NCBI GenBank assembly: GCA_014894395.1
Contig: JADBLO010000072.1
Coordinates: 130,351 to 194,350 of the forward strand
DNA from: Thermoplasmata archaeon
GTDB taxonomy: Archaea; Thermoplasmatota; E2; DHVEG-1
Length of the DNA: 64,000 nt
Direction of reading: 5' to 3'
Shown: piece by piece, positions 1,629-35,611 of the stretch
How the letters are laid out: every line of letters starts with the position of its first letter
Numbering within the stretch: the first letter of the stretch is position 1
Program-made: the position numbers and the translations under genes
The notes under the pieces: generated by a model
What the model was told of the DNA's origin: nothing
The model's input: the letters and a program-made list of their open reading frames with translations, nothing else
Databases searched by the model: none

Positions 1629-2069
1629 ATGGATTCTCTGATTATGTGTATCGGCAATCGAGACGGCGGCGATGATGGGATCGGGCCGCATATTGCTGAT
1701 ACCCTAAAGATTGATTCCCTTGATTTTGTGGTTCTTGATTGCGGAACGACACCGGAGAATTACACAGCGGTCGTCAAGCGACATAAACCAAAAACACTCG
1801 TTCTTATCGATGCTGCAGATATGGGTCTTGCTGCCGGGGATATACGAATAATTCCTAAAGAAAAACTCGGAAGCATGCATATCAGTACACATGGAATACC
1901 GCTCTCAATTTTAATCCAGTATTTGGAGAAAGAAGTAGAACATGTTATCTTTATAGGGATTCAACCACAAACGATGTTTGGGGAGATAAGTAAACCTGTA
2001 AAAAAGAGCGCAGAACAGCTTATCGAACTCCTGAAAAAGAAGAAAATAGATCAGATAAAAATCCTCTAG
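1629..2069 (+). CDS. Hydrogenase maturation endopeptidase (HycI/HyaD/FrhD family)
   Basis: 146 aa. N-terminal GNRDGGDDGIGPHIADTL matches the GNxxxxDDGxG metal-binding signature of hydrogenase maturation proteases. Size fits. Confidence 0.6.
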   Translation: MDSLIMCIGNRDGGDDGIGPHIADTLKIDSLDFVVLDCGTTPENYTAVVKRHKPKTLVLIDAADMGLAAGDIRIIPKEKLGSMHISTHGIPLSILIQYLEKEVEHVIFIGIQPQTMFGEISKPVKKSAEQLIELLKKKKIDQIKIL

Positions 2070-2998
2070 TAAGGATATTTTTTTCCAAGAGCCTCTGTGG
2101 ATGAAAGCGCAGCGATTGCCCCCTCAGCACACGCTGTGATCACTTGTCGTAATCCACCAGTGATGTCACCAGCGGCATAGACACCTTTGATGTTTGTCCG
2201 TTGCTGTCTATCCACTACGATATACCCGTGATCATTGAGAGTGAGACCGAGTATTTTAGCTAATTCATTTTGTGGTGTATCACCTACAGAAATGAAGACA
2301 CCATCCACCTCAAGAACTGATTTCTTTTGACTTGCAACATCGGTCAGATGAACACTTTCAACAGTATCTTTCCCTGCGATTCTATCTGCTTCTTTGTTCA
2401 ATAAGATTTGGATGTGTTTCTCTCGTGCCTCGGTTTCATATATTTTTTCTGCCCGGAGTTGCTCTCGTCGATGCACCAGCGTAACGTTTTTACACCCTAT
2501 TTGTTTGAGAAAGATTGCTTCCATGAGAGCGGTGTTTCCACCGCCCATTACCGCAACATGTTTCCCTTTGAAGAAAAACCCATCACAGGTGGCGCAATAC
2601 GAAACACCTTTTCCCAGAAATTCTTTTTCCCCAGGGATATCAAGTGTTTTGTGTTCGGTTCCGGTGCAAAGCAGAATCGCACCAACACTGTAGTTTGCTT
2701 TCGTTGTCACAAGCGTGAACGTGTCAGTGGAACGATGGATTGTTTTTACTTCCTCGTAGAGGTGCATCGTGACGTATTTTTCTGCATGGCGTTTCATTTT
2801 CTCCATGAGTTCTGCACCGGGGATTGATTCGAAGCCGGCGTAATTTTCTATTTTTGGCGAGAGTACTGCTCGTCCGCCGCCGTCACCTCTATCAAAAAGA
2901 GCGGTTTTAATACCGGACCGTGCCGCGTAGATTCCTGCGGAGTACCCAGCAGGGCCCGCGCCAATGATTGCTAATTCATAGTCCATATGGGTCCTCAT
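2066..2998 (-). CDS. trxB: Thioredoxin-disulfide reductase
   Basis: 310 aa. FAD-binding AIIGAGPAGYSAG near the N-terminus, redox-active CATCDG motif, second GGGNTA NADPH-binding motif. Confidence 0.8.
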   Translation of the reverse strand: MRTHMDYELAIIGAGPAGYSAGIYAARSGIKTALFDRGDGGGRAVLSPKIENYAGFESIPGAELMEKMKRHAEKYVTMHLYEEVKTIHRSTDTFTLVTTKANYSVGAILLCTGTEHKTLDIPGEKEFLGKGVSYCATCDGFFFKGKHVAVMGGGNTALMEAIFLKQIGCKNVTLVHRREQLRAEKIYETEAREKHIQILLNKEADRIAGKDTVESVHLTDVASQKKSVLEVDGVFISVGDTPQNELAKILGLTLNDHGYIVVDRQQRTNIKGVYAAGDITGGLRQVITACAEGAIAALSSTEALGKKYPY

Positions 2999-3021: not shown

Positions 3022-3714
3022 TTAAATGCCTCTCACTGCACAGCGTTTGAAAAATGGTTGTATAGCGGTTAACGTCTCTTCGAGGTAGTTTTTTGGATAC
3101 GGAATAGCATGTTCAAGTGTTGATGAAATCAAAGGAGAAAGGGGTTTGAACTGTTGAAGATAATACAGGTCTGCTCCTTTCAACCATTTTGCAATCTCAA
3201 CGATATCCTCTTTTTTCAACAGATCTGGAACGAACGTGGTCTTAAACTCATACGCAGGTGCCTTATTCTTGATAAGATCGATTGATGCTTCAATCTTCGA
3301 CGTATCGACATCGACACCAGCAAGCTCACGGTATCTCCTCTTCGGTGCCTTCACGTCCATCGCGACGTAATCAACAAGCTGTTGTCCCAGCAATTCACCA
3401 AGTTTTTCTGGAAACGCACCGTTCGTATCAACCTTTACTAAAAATCTCTGTTTTTTTATTTTTTCAATGAAATCAACGATATCTTCCTGTAACAGTGGCT
3501 CTCCACCAGAGATAACCACCCCTTCAAGTTGTCCTTTTCGTTTAGAAAGAAAAGAGAGGATTTCATCCTCAGGGAATAACTCTGCGGTCCCCAGCGCAAG
3601 ATTCTTGTTGTAACAGAACGGGCAGCGGAAATTACATCCGCTAGCCCAGACTATCGCACTAATCCGATCTGGATAGTCAAGCAACGATGTTTTCTGAAAG
3701 CCACCTATTTTCAT
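3022..3714 (-). CDS. nrdG: Anaerobic ribonucleotide reductase activating protein (radical SAM)
   Basis: 230 aa. CNFRCPFC radical-SAM CxxxCxxC motif near the N-terminus. Overlaps the nrdD stop by 4 nt. Confidence 0.8.
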   Translation of the reverse strand: MKIGGFQKTSLLDYPDRISAIVWASGCNFRCPFCYNKNLALGTAELFPEDEILSFLSKRKGQLEGVVISGGEPLLQEDIVDFIEKIKKQRFLVKVDTNGAFPEKLGELLGQQLVDYVAMDVKAPKRRYRELAGVDVDTSKIEASIDLIKNKAPAYEFKTTFVPDLLKKEDIVEIAKWLKGADLYYLQQFKPLSPLISSTLEHAIPYPKNYLEETLTAIQPFFKRCAVRGI

Positions 3715-6700
3715 TGTGTAACAAGAACCTTTTCTCTCATATCAAATGTTTTTCGATCACGGAACTCCTGCTGTTTTCCTTTATTCCATTGGTTCACCGG
3801 TCGGATATATCCTACGACCCGAGAGTAGATTTCGCATTCCGTGGTTTTTTGTTCAGCATGACAGGTCGGGCAGTACTGATGTTCACCAGCGATGTACCCA
3901 TGGTCAGGGCAGACGCTAAACGTCGGTGTGATGGTATAGTACGGGAGCGCGTAGTTCTCTGCAACCTTTCGAACTAAGTTCTTGATAGCAGTCGGCGAGG
4001 GTTCTTCCTCACCAAGGAAGATATGCAGTACCGTGCCACCAGTGTATTTTGTCTGTAAGGAATCCTGCAGATCAAGGGCTTCAAAGACATCCGTTGTAAA
4101 TCCAACAGGCAGTTGCGTGGAGTTGGTGTAGTATGGTTCAACGTCCCGCCCACGGTTTTGAGTGTAGATCTCCTGGTTGTATGTTCGAATGTCAGGGTAT
4201 TGTTTCTTATCGATTCGTGCGAGTCGATAGCTCGTCCCTTCTCCCGGTGTTGCCTCCAGGTTAAAGATGTTTTCGGTTTCTTCCTGGAAATCCGCGATAC
4301 GCGTGCGCATGTAATCAAGGACTTTCTCTGCGAATGCCTTACCCTCGGGATCGGCAATACTCTTATTCATGAAGTTCAGCAGAGCATCGTTCATGCCGAT
4401 GAGACCAATGGTAGAGAAATGGTTCTTCCAGTATTCCCCAAAGGTTTTCTTCACATCGGAGAGATAGAACCGTGAGTAGGGATGCAATCCACTATCGGTG
4501 AGATTTTCGATGAGATCTCGTTTGATTTCCAAGCTTTGTTTTGCAAGCACCATAAGTGCATCCAGTCGTTCAAAGAAATCAGTGTCATCTTTTGCAAGAT
4601 ACCCTATCCGCGGCATATTGAGGGTGACGACCCCTATCGATCCGGTTTTGGGATTCGCACCAAAAAGACCGCCACCTCGTTTTCTGAGTTCACGATTATC
4701 AAGTCTCAATCGACAATTGTGTGTTAGAATACCTGTTGTACCGACAGTGAACACAGGTGTTCCATTTTTTACCTCAAAACAATATGCGGCACTGTTGGAT
4801 ATCGGTGCGATGTCCTTTATCTTTACCCAGAGTTTATTGTTCTTCTTAAACCATATATCACCATAATTTTTTCTGTTTAATTGATATATTAATACTGCGT
4901 AATTAGGTTCTTTTCCCAGTCTTCCTTCGCGTGCATCTTCATAGATACTTGTCGTGGTTCCAAGCGTTGCAGTGAGCATGTTTAACGTTTCAACCATCTG
5001 AGGTGAAGAGGTATAAATTCTATTTCTGTTTCCGCCATCGGTGTCATAATGACCAGTAAGTGCCCCTTTTCTAAACTCCTTGCTCACGGTAAAAATCCTT
5101 GCTGTATATTTTTTATCTCTTTTTATTCCCTCGACATAATCTTTACATAAACCAACTGCTGCCTTTGAATGAACCTTGACTGTTGTTAATTTTGTTTTTT
5201 TATCAGCAGTAATTGTACAATGTGCACCGAAATACTGCTCAGCAATTTTAATGAGTTTTGTGATCACCTTTTTTTTGTAGTGGTTTTCTAAAGAAAACAC
5301 CACTGATGTATCACCATCAAAGGATCCATCTCCTGCATACGCTCCAACAAAATAACCTAAGTCTTTTGTCCCTCCAGATCCCTCATATTCCTGTAAAGAG
5401 TACGGTAGATACATTCCGAGTTTGAGGTCTTGACCTTTTACAACGCTTTCTTTTTTTTCGGAAGAATCATTCATTATATAGTTTAAATGATGGGATGACA
5501 TTTTAATTTCATGACCATTTTCTAATTTGATTTTTATCATTTGTTGGTCGTTCCATTTGTTAAATTTTCCTTTGATAAATTTCCCAGCACTATAGATTTC
5601 ATATTCCCCTTGGTTACTGTTACCTTCATAGATATTTCTAATCATTGAATATTCAACGATTCTTCCTCTTGAAGATTTAATTAGAACTTTTTCATCTCCA
5701 GCTAAAGGGCACATGGATCGTGCATCATCCGGCTTCATGTCGCTGTTAATAAAATTACTGAAGTACGGGATCCCGTATTTCGCGGTCATGTCCCAGAGTG
5801 GTGTCAGTCCATCGTTGTTCCAGTTGAAATCTTTTGTGATGTTATAGGTTGGAATGGGAAATGTAAATGGCCTCCCCTTAGAATCACCGTCATGCATGTT
5901 CTCTGCGAATGCACGGTTGATCATCTCCATCTCACCGGTGTATTCACTATAATTATTGTCAGTAAGATTTCCGCCGATAATCGCTGGTTCCTCAGCAAGG
6001 TATCCAGGTATGGTTAAATCCATTGTACAGTTACTGAAAGGCGATTGGAAGCCAACACGTGTTGGTACATTCATATTGAACAAAAATTTTTGCATCTCTT
6101 GCTTTACACTATCGTACTGGAGTTGGTCTTTTGCAATGAATGGTGCTAATAAAGTATCAAAATTCGAAAGAGCCTGTGCTCCTGCGGCTTCACCCTGTAA
6201 AGTGTACAGATAGTTCACGATATGCATAAGTGCAGTGCTGAAATGTTTCGCTGGTTTGCTTTCGATTTTCCCGGAGACGCCTTTGAAACCGAGGAGTAAT
6301 AAATCTTTTAAGTCCCACCCCACGCAATATGGTCCGAGTGTCCCAAGGTCGTGCAGGTGGTAGTCTCCCTTGGTGTGCGCATCTCCTATCTCAGGCGGAT
6401 AAATCTTATTGAGCCAGTAATGAGAAATAATGCTTTCAGTGGCGTACACATTCAATCCTTGCAAAGAGTATGCCATGTTGCTATTCTCATTGACCTTCCA
6501 GTCCAACATGCTGAGGTAGTCATCAACCACATCAATGTCTTTCAGAAGTCCCCCGATTTCTCGCATGTCCTGGTGTTGTTTCCTGTAGAGGATGAATGCT
6601 TTCGCGGTTTTCGCATGACCATCCTCTATGATGACTTTTTCTACGACGTCCTGGACTTGTTCAACTGTAGGGATTTCACTGCGTTTCAACTCTTTTTCTA

Positions 6701-6848
6701 AGATGGTGATAACTTTGTCTGTCAGCTCTGCTGCTTTCTTGTAGTCTTTTCCACCGACTGCTTGTGCTGCTTTCCAGATTGCTTCTGTGATTCTTACTGG
6801 GTTGAAGTCAACAATTTTCCCGTCTCGTTTCTTAATCTTCCGTATCAT
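3711..6848 (-). CDS. nrdD: Anaerobic (class III) ribonucleoside-triphosphate reductase NrdD, with an in-frame intein
   Basis: 1045 aa. N-terminal ATP-cone (VRITEAIWKAA...). C-terminal glycyl radical motif RVVGYIRPV and a Zn-ribbon CPDHG...CPTC. Removing the 332-aa intein leaves ~713 aa, typical for NrdD. Confidence 0.85.
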   Translation of the reverse strand: MIRKIKKRDGKIVDFNPVRITEAIWKAAQAVGGKDYKKAAELTDKVITILEKELKRSEIPTVEQVQDVVEKVIIEDGHAKTAKAFILYRKQHQDMREIGGLLKDIDVVDDYLSMLDWKVNENSNMAYSLQGLNVYATESIISHYWLNKIYPPEIGDAHTKGDYHLHDLGTLGPYCVGWDLKDLLLLGFKGVSGKIESKPAKHFSTALMHIVNYLYTLQGEAAGAQALSNFDTLLAPFIAKDQLQYDSVKQEMQKFLFNMNVPTRVGFQSPFSNCTMDLTIPGYLAEEPAIIGGNLTDNNYSEYTGEMEMINRAFAENMHDGDSKGRPFTFPIPTYNITKDFNWNNDGLTPLWDMTAKYGIPYFSNFINSDMKPDDARSMCPLAGDEKVLIKSSRGRIVEYSMIRNIYEGNSNQGEYEIYSAGKFIKGKFNKWNDQQMIKIKLENGHEIKMSSHHLNYIMNDSSEKKESVVKGQDLKLGMYLPYSLQEYEGSGGTKDLGYFVGAYAGDGSFDGDTSVVFSLENHYKKKVITKLIKIAEQYFGAHCTITADKKTKLTTVKVHSKAAVGLCKDYVEGIKRDKKYTARIFTVSKEFRKGALTGHYDTDGGNRNRIYTSSPQMVETLNMLTATLGTTTSIYEDAREGRLGKEPNYAVLIYQLNRKNYGDIWFKKNNKLWVKIKDIAPISNSAAYCFEVKNGTPVFTVGTTGILTHNCRLRLDNRELRKRGGGLFGANPKTGSIGVVTLNMPRIGYLAKDDTDFFERLDALMVLAKQSLEIKRDLIENLTDSGLHPYSRFYLSDVKKTFGEYWKNHFSTIGLIGMNDALLNFMNKSIADPEGKAFAEKVLDYMRTRIADFQEETENIFNLEATPGEGTSYRLARIDKKQYPDIRTYNQEIYTQNRGRDVEPYYTNSTQLPVGFTTDVFEALDLQDSLQTKYTGGTVLHIFLGEEEPSPTAIKNLVRKVAENYALPYYTITPTFSVCPDHGYIAGEHQYCPTCHAEQKTTECEIYSRVVGYIRPVNQWNKGKQQEFRDRKTFDMREKVLVTQ
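4716..5711 (-). mobile_element. Intein (332 aa) with LAGLIDADG homing-endonuclease domain inside NrdD
   Basis: Starts with Cys (SM|CPLAGDEKV...) and ends ...GILTHN followed by the extein Cys (CRLRL). LAGLIDADG-like blocks LGYFVGAYAGDGSF and LTGHYDTDGG. Boundaries were counted codon by codon. Confidence 0.75.
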
Positions 6849-6862
6849 GTGGTTCTTTCCTC

Positions 6863-7309
6863 CTATTTCTCTATTAAATTTTTAACCTCTTTTTCGAAGC
6901 TGGTGACGTCAGTGAACTGACGATAGACCGATGCGAACCTGATGTATGCGACATGATCGACTTCTTTTAATGCATCCATGACGTATTCTCCTATGAGGGA
7001 GGTTTCGATTTCTTCTTTTCCGACTCGTCTGATTTTTTCTTCAATTCCATCGATCATTTCTTCGATTTTTTCATGGGTGATTGGACGTTTCTCAAGTGCT
7101 TTTTCCATTCCGTTTCTGATTTTACAGCGGTCGAATCGTTCTCGTCTGCCGTCTTTTTTTATGACGAAAAGTGGTGCCATTTCGATGTATTCGTAGGTCG
7201 TGAATCGCTTGTTGCAGCTGAGGCATTCTCGTCGTCTGCGTATTGATCCTCCCGTATCGCGAGAGTCGGTAACCTTCGTGTCAATATGGTTGCAATAGGG
7301 ACAGTTCAT
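6863..7309 (-). CDS. nrdR: Transcriptional repressor NrdR (Zn-ribbon plus ATP-cone)
   Basis: 148 aa. [19 protein letters not shown]...[17 protein letters not shown] is the canonical NrdR N-terminus. Immediately upstream of nrdD. Confidence 0.8.
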
Positions 7310-7324
7310 CTCACCACACCAGAT

Positions 7325-7371
7325 ACAATATATAGTATAGCAAAAATTTTAAGCTACAAACTGTAGTATAG
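7325..7371 (-). promoter_or_regulatory. Two candidate NrdR boxes / promoter region of the nrdR-nrdD-nrdG operon
   Basis: ACAATATATAGTATAG at 7325-7340 and ACAAACTGTAGTATAG at 7356-7371. They share TAGTATAG exactly 31 bp apart. The second sits in the palindrome CTACAAACTGTAG. They lie 16-62 nt upstream of the nrdR start. Confidence 0.4.
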
Positions 7372-7456
7372 TTGGGTGGTTTTTAAGTCTTTTCATTTTT
7401 TGAAAAAAATGTGGTTTTCTTCCGTCTAATTTATTAACTATTTTGACTGTGAAATG

Positions 7457-8086
7457 TTAGAGTTTGACGTTCGTTGCATGCGTGACTGCGAACTTTACAA
7501 GCTCATCGACATTGATTTTTTGTTCTTCGGTGAGTATCTGCTCAAGACGTGCTCTCGTCGATGGTTTGATCGGGACCGCACCACATCCATCAGCAGGTGA
7601 AATTGATAAATCAAAGGTCCCAATCTTTTTTGCAATCTGAATCGTGTCTTCCTTATCAAACCCGATCAATGGTCGGAGGATCGGGATGCTGACTGCTTGT
7701 TCCACGACACGAATGTTTTGCAGTGTCTGCGATGCAACCTGACCGAGAGAATCACCCATCACAATTGCATCCGCGTGCTCTTTTTTTGCGATTGCTTCTG
7801 CGTACCGCAGCATCATGCGTTTGCAGACGACGCACGTAAATTTGTTGTCACAACTAGTTTTGTAGGACTGAAGCGTCTGTCCATGCGGAATAAGTATTGC
7901 ATTCAGTTTCGATGGCAATTTTTTCTTGAGGTATTTCGCAAGAGTAACAAATTTTTCTATCTCGCGGTCATCGGTAAATGGGCGATTATCGGCATGAACC
8001 AAAATAATCTCATCTGCATTCTTTGAAAGCAGGTACGTCGCGACCGGGGAATCGATACCACTGGAGACCAACGCGACGAATTTCAT
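7457..8086 (-). CDS. PP-loop ATP pyrophosphatase, ThiI-like sulfurtransferase lacking the THUMP domain
   Basis: 209 aa. SSGIDSPVA PP-loop (SGGxDS-like) near the N-terminus. Conserved Cys pairs. Confidence 0.55.
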   Translation of the reverse strand: MKFVALVSSGIDSPVATYLLSKNADEIILVHADNRPFTDDREIEKFVTLAKYLKKKLPSKLNAILIPHGQTLQSYKTSCDNKFTCVVCKRMMLRYAEAIAKKEHADAIVMGDSLGQVASQTLQNIRVVEQAVSIPILRPLIGFDKEDTIQIAKKIGTFDLSISPADGCGAVPIKPSTRARLEQILTEEQKINVDELVKFAVTHATNVKL

Positions 8087-35284: not shown

Positions 35285-35359
35285 GAAGAGACACTGAAAC
35301 ATTTAAAAAGTAATAGAAATTCTGGTTGCACTACATACAGTGATAATGATTTTAGTATT

Positions 35360-35433
35360 GGGCTCGTGGTCTAGTTGGTTATGACGTTTCCCTGACACGG
35401 AGAAGGTCTTGAGTTCGAATCTCAACGAGCCCA
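35360..35433 (+). tRNA. tRNA-Val (anticodon GAC)
   Basis: Acceptor GGGCTCG/CGAGCCC. Anticodon stem TTTCC/GGAGA (one G-U), loop CTGACAC. TPsiC GGTTCGAATCC-like GAGTTCGAATCTC. Confidence 0.8.
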
Positions 35434-35611
35434 CTCCTATCATTTTGTACTTTCTGTGACTTACTTACTGCATCGATGAATGTGAAATGTTCTCGGAGTT
35501 TATTCTCCTAAAACCTGCTAATAATCAAACCTTGTTCTCTAGCTTTTGATATTATAAATATAACGAGGGATCACTGCAAAAAGTATGTTGAAAAAAGTTA
35601 CTTCTTAAAAC

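Follow-up and report, generated by a model that had tools for sequence, protein, structure and literature searches.

NrdR, which represses ribonucleotide reductase genes, binds DNA at pairs of 16-mers, the NrdR boxes, with conserved positions C4, A6, A8, T9, T11, and G13, of which C4 and G13 are essential (PMC13584703). The two boxes of a pair lie 15-16 bp apart, or one helical turn further, and both are needed for binding (PMC13584703). A published criterion also calls for at least 63% A/T between C4 and G13, allowing the DNA to bend sharply, and the sequence of the linker between the boxes has been reported not to matter. In a cryo-EM complex of NrdR, residues D15 and R17 read conserved G-C pairs, and a stretch of four arginines (RRRR) holds the backbone. 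Box 2 of E. coli nrdAB, GTACTACAGGTAGTCT, binds NrdR with a KD of 113 nM, and the NrdR proteins of E. coli and S. coelicolor cross-bind each other's boxes (PMC13584703), so that recognition appears to be broadly conserved. Bacterial NrdR often represses its own gene too (PMC9110341).

NrdR has been reported in 22% of archaeal genomes (PMC13584703). In haloarchaeal nrdR-nrdA/B operons nrdR is the first gene, and these operons have been read as acquired from bacteria (Lundin et al., 2010; PMC3019208); the passages on NrdR in that paper mention no operator boxes or promoter geometry. The large published box surveys cover bacterial genomes only, and the papers that we found contain no binding or expression study of any archaeal NrdR, the mechanistic work being all bacterial. 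Some archaeal repressors of other families, such as MDR1 of Archaeoglobus as well as LrpA and Phr of Pyrococcus, have their sites downstream of the TATA box, from where they prevent RNA polymerase from being recruited.

Here, we analyze an nrd locus of an uncultured Thermoplasmata archaeon within a stretch of 64 kb, hereafter called the window. We put at roughly 0.88 the probability that 47 bp of it (7323-7369) form a canonical two-box NrdR operator, at which the protein would act as repressor of its own nrdR-nrdD-nrdG(-trxB) operon, with RNA polymerase as the target of the block. As far as sequence can tell, the identification is correct, with computational support about as good as a site can have. 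The locus is an ordinary member of a known bacterial-type regulatory system, found in a new host lineage.

A class III reductase operon headed by nrdR

The locus comprises four closely spaced genes and a fifth gene further upstream, all on the same strand:

6863..7309, minus strand: nrdR, 148 aa (Pfam Zn_ribbon_NrdR 2.6e-19, ATP-cone 4.6e-24)
3711..6848, minus strand: nrdD, class III ribonucleotide reductase with an N-terminal ATP-cone, split by an intein (Pfam NRDD 2e-189, ATP-cone)
3022..3714, minus strand: nrdG-like radical-SAM activase (Pfam Radical_SAM and Fer4_12)
2066..2998, minus strand: thioredoxin-reductase-like gene, trxB (Pfam Pyr_redox_2 1.3e-57)
8086..7457, same strand as nrdR: ThiI-like gene upstream

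The Pfam domains confirm the identities that the original prediction had given to nrdR, nrdD, and nrdG. Only 14 nt separate nrdR from nrdD, nrdD and nrdG overlap by 4 nt, and 23 nt lie between nrdG and the thioredoxin-reductase-like gene; the order nrdD-nrdG is conserved in relatives. From the 14-nt gap, the 4-nt overlap, and bacterial precedent (PMC9110341), it is reasonable to suppose, as had been proposed, that NrdR autoregulates the whole operon. The thioredoxin-reductase-like gene is probably co-transcribed as the last gene of this operon, and its presence hints at a thioredoxin-dependent class III reductase. It lies 3' of nrdG in most relatives, and in distant ones about 480 nt, possibly a small gene, intervene. 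Because the ThiI-like gene lies on the same strand, the nrdR promoter must be located in the 147 bp at 7310-7456.

The NrdR protein aligns over its full length with that of E. coli (9fzf, E = 3e-42), and its alignment with S. coelicolor NrdR (7p37, E = 4e-35) covers residues 1-145. As in bacterial NrdR, a Zn-ribbon is combined with an ATP-cone: both CxxC pairs of the ribbon (C3/C6 and C29/C32) are kept, along with D15, R17, and R24-R27 (RRRR).

The intein of nrdD spans approximately codons 385-712 and carries a LAGLIDADG-type domain (Intein_splicing 3.7e-06 and LAGLIDADG_3 8e-04, both below the curated cut-offs). It is shared by some relatives only (L002, L003, L004, L011, L023, L034, and L035); the others are without it or have insertions elsewhere (L005, L029, L033, and L043).

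Two NrdR boxes upstream of nrdR

Immediately 5' of nrdR, we identified two boxes separated by a linker:

7354..7369, minus strand: NrdR box 1 (distal), gene strand ATACTACAGTTTGTAG, bacterial-matrix score 8.3 bits
7339..7353, minus strand: inter-box linker of 15 bp, CTTAAAATTTTTGCT on the gene strand
7323..7338, minus strand: NrdR box 2 (proximal), ATACTATATATTGTAT on the gene strand, 13.9 bits

Read on the gene strand, box 1, the linker, and box 2 are followed by 13 nt and the nrdR ATG, and the centres of the boxes are 31 bp apart, that is three helical turns. Each 16-bp box is a partial palindrome, with half-sites ATAC....GTAT at 7323-7338 and TAC....GTA at 7354-7369. Box 2 has all six conserved positions (C4, A6, A8, T9, T11, and G13), and box 1 has five (C4, A6, A8, T11, and G13), T9 being replaced by G. 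C4 and G13 are thus present in both, with 8 bp between them, and the A/T content of this interval (75% in box 1, 100% in box 2) exceeds the published 63% limit in each case. The box cores are nearly identical to those of E. coli: the core of box 2, CTATATATTGT, is the same as that of E. coli nrdEF box 1, and the central AG of box 1 is also found in E. coli nrdAB box 2. The same two 16-bp boxes with a 15-bp linker are found in the bacterial systems (nrdAB, nrdHIEF, and nrdDG of E. coli; nrdAB and nrdRJ of S. coelicolor).

The original prediction had placed two NrdR boxes upstream of nrdR on the basis of ACAATATATAGTATAG (7325-7340) and ACAAACTGTAGTATAG (7356-7371), and these letters are indeed present on the plus strand, as is the 8-mer TAGTATAG that they share (7333-7340 and 7364-7371), exactly 31 bp apart and part of a wider common pattern, ACAA....TAGTATAG. 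The operator reading holds; however, the register was off by 2 bp, since the symmetric 16-mers start at 7323 and 7354. In the register first proposed (7325, 7356) the scores fall to 2.6 and -6.4 bits, against 13.9 and 8.3 bits at 7323 and 7354. Similarly, the palindrome reported there, CTACAAACTGTAG (7354-7366), exists with its 5-bp arms, but this CTACA-AAC-TGTAG is centred elsewhere than the NrdR box, whose C4 and G13 fall at 7357 and 7366 of the plus strand. The boxes do lie 5' of nrdR, though the genes are on the minus strand and upstream therefore means higher coordinates.

The 8-mer TAGTATAG has three copies in the 64 kb, where 0.63 would be expected, and the 12-position pattern ACAANNNNTAGTATAG has exact matches in the window only at the two box sites. 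As a bare repeat, the pair shows 13 of 16 identities at an offset of 31 bp, a value reached by 0.8% of Markov shuffles of the 147-bp intergenic region (29% GC). The repeat alone is therefore only moderately unusual, and the strong evidence is the weight-matrix score together with conservation.

Scores against a bacterial weight matrix

The original prediction had proposed scoring the region with a position weight matrix, and had named a poor score and a lack of conservation in orthologous promoters as grounds for refutation; the site passed both of these tests. Our matrix was symmetrised and drew solely on ten boxes, from E. coli and S. coelicolor, whose affinity for NrdR has been measured (Table 1 of PMC13584703); pairs were scored with linkers of 15 or 16 bp, and 200 first-order Markov sequences served as nulls. 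The highest-scoring single box of the 64-kb window is that at 7323 (13.9 bits), and the pair 7323/7354 ranks first at 22.2 bits. We found no further NrdR site in the window, the next pair reaching 12.1 bits. In the null sequences the best pair scored 12.7 +/- 1.9 bits on average and 19.7 bits at most, so that none of the 200 reached 22.2 bits.

A lone box-like 16-mer, GCACTACATACAGTGA (35328-35343, 11.5 bits), adjoins the promoter of a tRNA-Val gene; it is probably due to chance, because it is within the range of the null maxima and has no partner box.

A regular expression from the literature (C.[AT].[AT][AT].[AT].G, spacer of 20-23 nt) was applied as well. It rejects box 1 of the window, the weaker of the two boxes, because of the G at position 9, and it accepts only 27 of the 49 Thermoplasmata pairs. 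As a pair detector it proved too loose, with four chance matches inside genes of the window, and yet it misses the real pair owing to G9 of box 1. E. coli nrdAB box 2, which is experimentally bound, fails likewise. Since the expression is a loose search heuristic, we do not count this failure against membership of the site in the family.

Conservation among Thermoplasmata

A scan with the NrdR protein, taking one genome per species, yielded 79 loci, about 50 of them from uncultured Thermoplasmata with an NrdR 68-99% identical to that of the window. The original prediction had suggested looking for the same phased pair in orthologous promoters, and it is there in all 47 Thermoplasmata loci with upstream DNA: in each, the best pair of the whole ~8-kb locus is the one upstream of nrdR. 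These pairs score 20-28 bits, always have a 15-bp linker, and lie 12-42 nt before the nrdR ATG. Across 632 kb of locus sequence and the window itself, no pair of at least 20 bits lies anywhere but directly upstream of nrdR. The conserved gene order is cutA-thiI-promoter-nrdR-nrdD-nrdG-trxB, and in relatives with about 1.4 kb inserted between thiI and nrdR the promoter and the boxes remain with nrdR.

Among 47 unique sequences from divergent relatives (NrdR at most 82% identical to that of the window), C4, A6, A8, T9, and G13 are kept in 46-47 in both boxes, with C4 and G13 kept in all 47. Mean information content in these sequences is 1.69 and 1.71 bits for the two boxes, 0.67 for the linker, 0.39 for the 10-nt spacer next to box 1, and 0.42 beyond it; with the other comparison of relatives included, the values span 1.6-1.7 bits for the boxes and 0.67-0.74 for the linker. 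The linker is thus of fixed length, with a sequence that is poorly conserved apart from a T-tract.

This T-tract (ATTTTT, 7341-7347, minus strand) shows moderate conservation in most of the Thermoplasmata loci, and may help the DNA to wrap or form a U-tract near the beginning of the transcript.

The low GC content of the intergenic region, and the fraction of shuffles that reproduce the raw repeat, would speak for a chance direct repeat. This explanation is contradicted by the absence of any null sequence with a comparable pair score and by the fact that 47 of 47 relatives keep the pair in place and at the same spacing, although their flanks have drifted apart. The conservation data already refute it, and we regard its probability as practically negligible.

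Box 1 deviates from full symmetry, and consistently so, position 16 being G in 43 of 47 sequences and position 11 variable. Such a departure from the palindrome would fit a second constraint, from the initiation region. Besides NrdR contacts, a promoter function of the same DNA, as initiator or as the region melted first, could account for part of the conservation.

A predicted archaeal promoter next to the operator

Upstream of and within the operator we could recognize the elements of an archaeal promoter:

7388..7399, minus strand: BRE-like purine-rich element with a conserved AAAAT, AAAATGAAAAGA on the gene strand, with high column information content in relatives
7380..7387, minus strand: predicted TATA box, CTTAAAAA on the gene strand
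7355..7358, minus strand: predicted transcription start zone, at about positions 12-15 of box 1, with a G at 7357, about 23 nt past the last TATA base
7310..7322, minus strand: rest of the predicted 5' leader, with a Shine-Dalgarno-like GGTG/GGTGAG read from the sequence

When the relatives are anchored on box 1 without gaps, a conserved AAAATsrAAAGnTTTAAAAA emerges upstream, and in 47 of 49 sequences a YTTAWAWA-like 8-mer starts at offset -18 relative to box 1. The TATA box and box 1 are therefore kept apart by a spacer whose length (10 nt) is fixed and whose sequence is free to vary. The purine-rich element at 7388-7399 we take to be the BRE, as is general in archaeal promoters. The TATA box ends exactly 10 nt upstream of box 1, and at the usual archaeal distance from TATA box to start site initiation is predicted inside box 1, near 7357. 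The operator, which adjoins nrdR-nrdD-nrdG directly upstream, would thus overlap the start site, as predicted from the conserved TATA box. The promoter architecture is the one aspect of the locus that we did not find described: we found no literature linking NrdR or its boxes to Thermoplasmata or to archaeal TATA boxes.

The sequence GAAAnnTTTAAAAA also precedes the tRNA-Val (GAC) gene (35360-35434, plus strand), within GAAACATTTAAAAA at 35296-35309 (plus strand), which supports it as the general BRE/TATA of this organism. We also considered AAAATnnAAAGnYTTAAAAA as a general promoter consensus and rejected it, as only its GAAAnnTTTAAAAA part recurs in the tRNA-Val promoter; the AAAAT part seems to belong to the nrdR promoter alone.

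A perfect palindrome, CATTTTTT-TC-AAAAAATG (7394-7411, minus strand), is found a short way upstream of the BRE. Its T-run and AAAAT are conserved among relatives even where the upstream gene differs, and the tRNA-Val promoter lacks them. The palindrome may be the site of a second regulator or an upstream promoter element.

Since both boxes are A/T-rich, one might ask if the repeats are themselves basal promoter elements, either duplicated TATA boxes or alternative promoters. In that case TATATATT in box 2, about 20-27 nt upstream of the ATG, would serve as TATA box for a near-leaderless nrdR mRNA, and the linker also contains TTAAAA. However, a better BRE/TATA is present at a fixed upstream offset in 47 of 49 relatives, and TATA boxes need neither an invariant C4/G13 nor a linker of exactly 15 bp. 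A leaderless mRNA is further contradicted by the Shine-Dalgarno-like leader, in which a GGTGA/GGAGA-like motif recurs before the nrdR ATG of relatives. Together with the sigma-70 promoters described below, these features make a basal-promoter origin of the boxes most improbable.

A role of the palindromes in RNA, as a hairpin of the 5' leader governing translation or stability, was also evaluated and rejected. A 73-nt leader does fold at -15.4 kcal/mol (z = -1.9), with box 2 paired to the Shine-Dalgarno region, but this fold is weak: folds just as good were obtained for 6 of 200 shuffles, and the stem contains many G-U pairs. Moreover, most of box 1 is predicted to lie upstream of the start site, the variable distance from box 2 to the ATG among relatives means that the pairing partner is not kept, and the same boxes are established DNA sites in bacteria. 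We hold this RNA-based explanation to be extremely unlikely.

The same operator in other genomes

A scan of metagenomes with a degenerate box-pair pattern, made without protein information, returned at least 80 loci. Among the 80 pattern matches listed, nrdR follows immediately in 44, and at least four others precede reductase genes of class II (L083 and L112) or class III (L100 and L139); some of the remaining matches listed are tandem repeats or short contigs.

In another group of metagenome loci, NrdR is 48-57% identical to that of the window, and most of these loci carry the boxes inside a sigma-70 promoter. In this layout, TTGACA is followed by one base and box 1, which together make up the 17-bp hexamer spacer, and a TAATAT-like -10 element stands at the start of the linker. 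The loci with this arrangement (L080, L092, L098, L105, L110, L120, L126, L127, L142, and L149-L151; NrdR 51-57% identical) are presumably bacterial. The occurrence of the same pair inside sigma-70 promoters indicates that the boxes are a module separate from the basal promoter elements; together with its presence before bacterial reductase genes, it argues against the boxes being basal elements themselves. The operator is thus a portable module, fitted into basal promoters of two different kinds.

Pairs of 22-26 bits are also present upstream of nrdR in four loci labelled DPANN (Nano-/Woesearchaeota) and Methanosarcinales (L047, L070, L074, and L075), with linkers of 16-17 bp; their distance to a TATA-like element is not the one seen in Thermoplasmata. 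The gene after nrdR in L047, L070, and L075 encodes a class II-type reductase, and L074 and L075 have two box pairs each.

Palindromic A/T-rich sites are common targets of archaeal regulators. The boxes might accordingly be the operator of another archaeal transcription factor, with NrdR binding elsewhere or being inactive. Against this, the site fits a matrix made from boxes of measured NrdR affinity, and the pair directly precedes nrdR in all Thermoplasmata loci for which upstream DNA is available. Moreover, nrdR was the gene following the pair in those 44 of the 80 listed matches, which were found by pattern only; the specificity residues D15 and R17 are conserved; and the E. coli and S. 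coelicolor proteins cross-bind boxes. We therefore consider the involvement of another factor very unlikely, and retain NrdR as the probable cognate regulator.

A model for repression

By analogy with the solved bacterial complexes, an NrdR tetramer loaded with dATP/ATP would set one Zn-ribbon pair on each box. As in bacteria, D15 and R17 would read the C4/G13 base pairs, the arginines would grip the backbone, and the DNA would be kinked sharply at each A/T-rich box centre. With initiation near 7357, inside box 1, box 2 would lie within the early transcribed leader, and bound NrdR would cover approximately -12 to +35. TBP and TFB would remain free to bind, and the step blocked may be either the recruitment of RNA polymerase or the opening of the promoter. 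At high dATP relative to ATP, the reductase genes and nrdR itself would be shut off. Were the start site elsewhere, for instance one set by TATATATT in box 2, the geometry of occlusion would differ. The match of the sequence, its conservation, the presence of a cognate NrdR, and the layout of the operon are observations, and to these the model adds binding, its dependence on nucleotides, the place of the start site, and the initiation step at which the block occurs.

As in the autoregulated nrdRJ of S. coelicolor, the operator is placed at the promoter of a reductase operon that starts with nrdR. Unlike in the bacterial systems, the host is an archaeon and the operator lies 10 nt downstream of a BRE/TATA, not interleaved with -35 and -10 hexamers, so the polymerase to be blocked would be a Pol II-like enzyme working with TBP and TFB. 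The locus also resembles the haloarchaeal nrdR-nrdA/B operons, to go by the passages on NrdR in PMC3019208, in being an archaeal reductase operon headed by nrdR; it differs from those class I operons of Halobacteria in that it encodes a class III nrdDG, belongs to Thermoplasmata, and has boxes mapped relative to the TATA box.

The predicted arrangement, with the operator over the start site and the BRE/TATA left free, is similar to that of MDR1, LrpA, and Phr, and would likewise lead to repression after TBP/TFB binding. In contrast to these proteins, which belong to unrelated families, NrdR senses dATP/ATP by means of its ATP-cone and would bind here, as in bacteria, as a tetramer on two sites three helical turns apart.

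A more elaborate reading starts from the spacing of the elements: about 22 bp separate the centre of the TATA box from that of box 1, and about 31 bp lie between the centres of the two boxes, values near two and three helical turns. The bend introduced by TBP and the two NrdR kinks would then be in phase, so that NrdR could trap or cooperate with the TBP/TFB-DNA complex. The NrdR module would in this case have been rebuilt on the BRE/TATA and would hold a wrapped, closed 'repressosome', for which the AAAAT/T-run palindrome next to the BRE might provide an additional partner site. If true, this would be a mode of action without bacterial counterpart; we consider it unlikely, and keep to an operator at which NrdR blocks RNA polymerase.

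Implications

Our understanding of NrdR itself is unchanged by these data. What this locus and about 70 relatives provide is a clean, conserved bacterial-type operator at a fixed distance from an archaeal TATA box. Together with the loci in which the same pair is embedded in sigma-70 promoters, they offer a testable case of one nucleotide-sensing repressor acting on two basal transcription machineries. For the organisms concerned, a widespread clade of sediment Thermoplasmata, the finding predicts dATP/ATP feedback on the supply of dNTPs that would operate at two levels, transcriptional and enzymatic, because NrdR and NrdD both carry ATP-cones.
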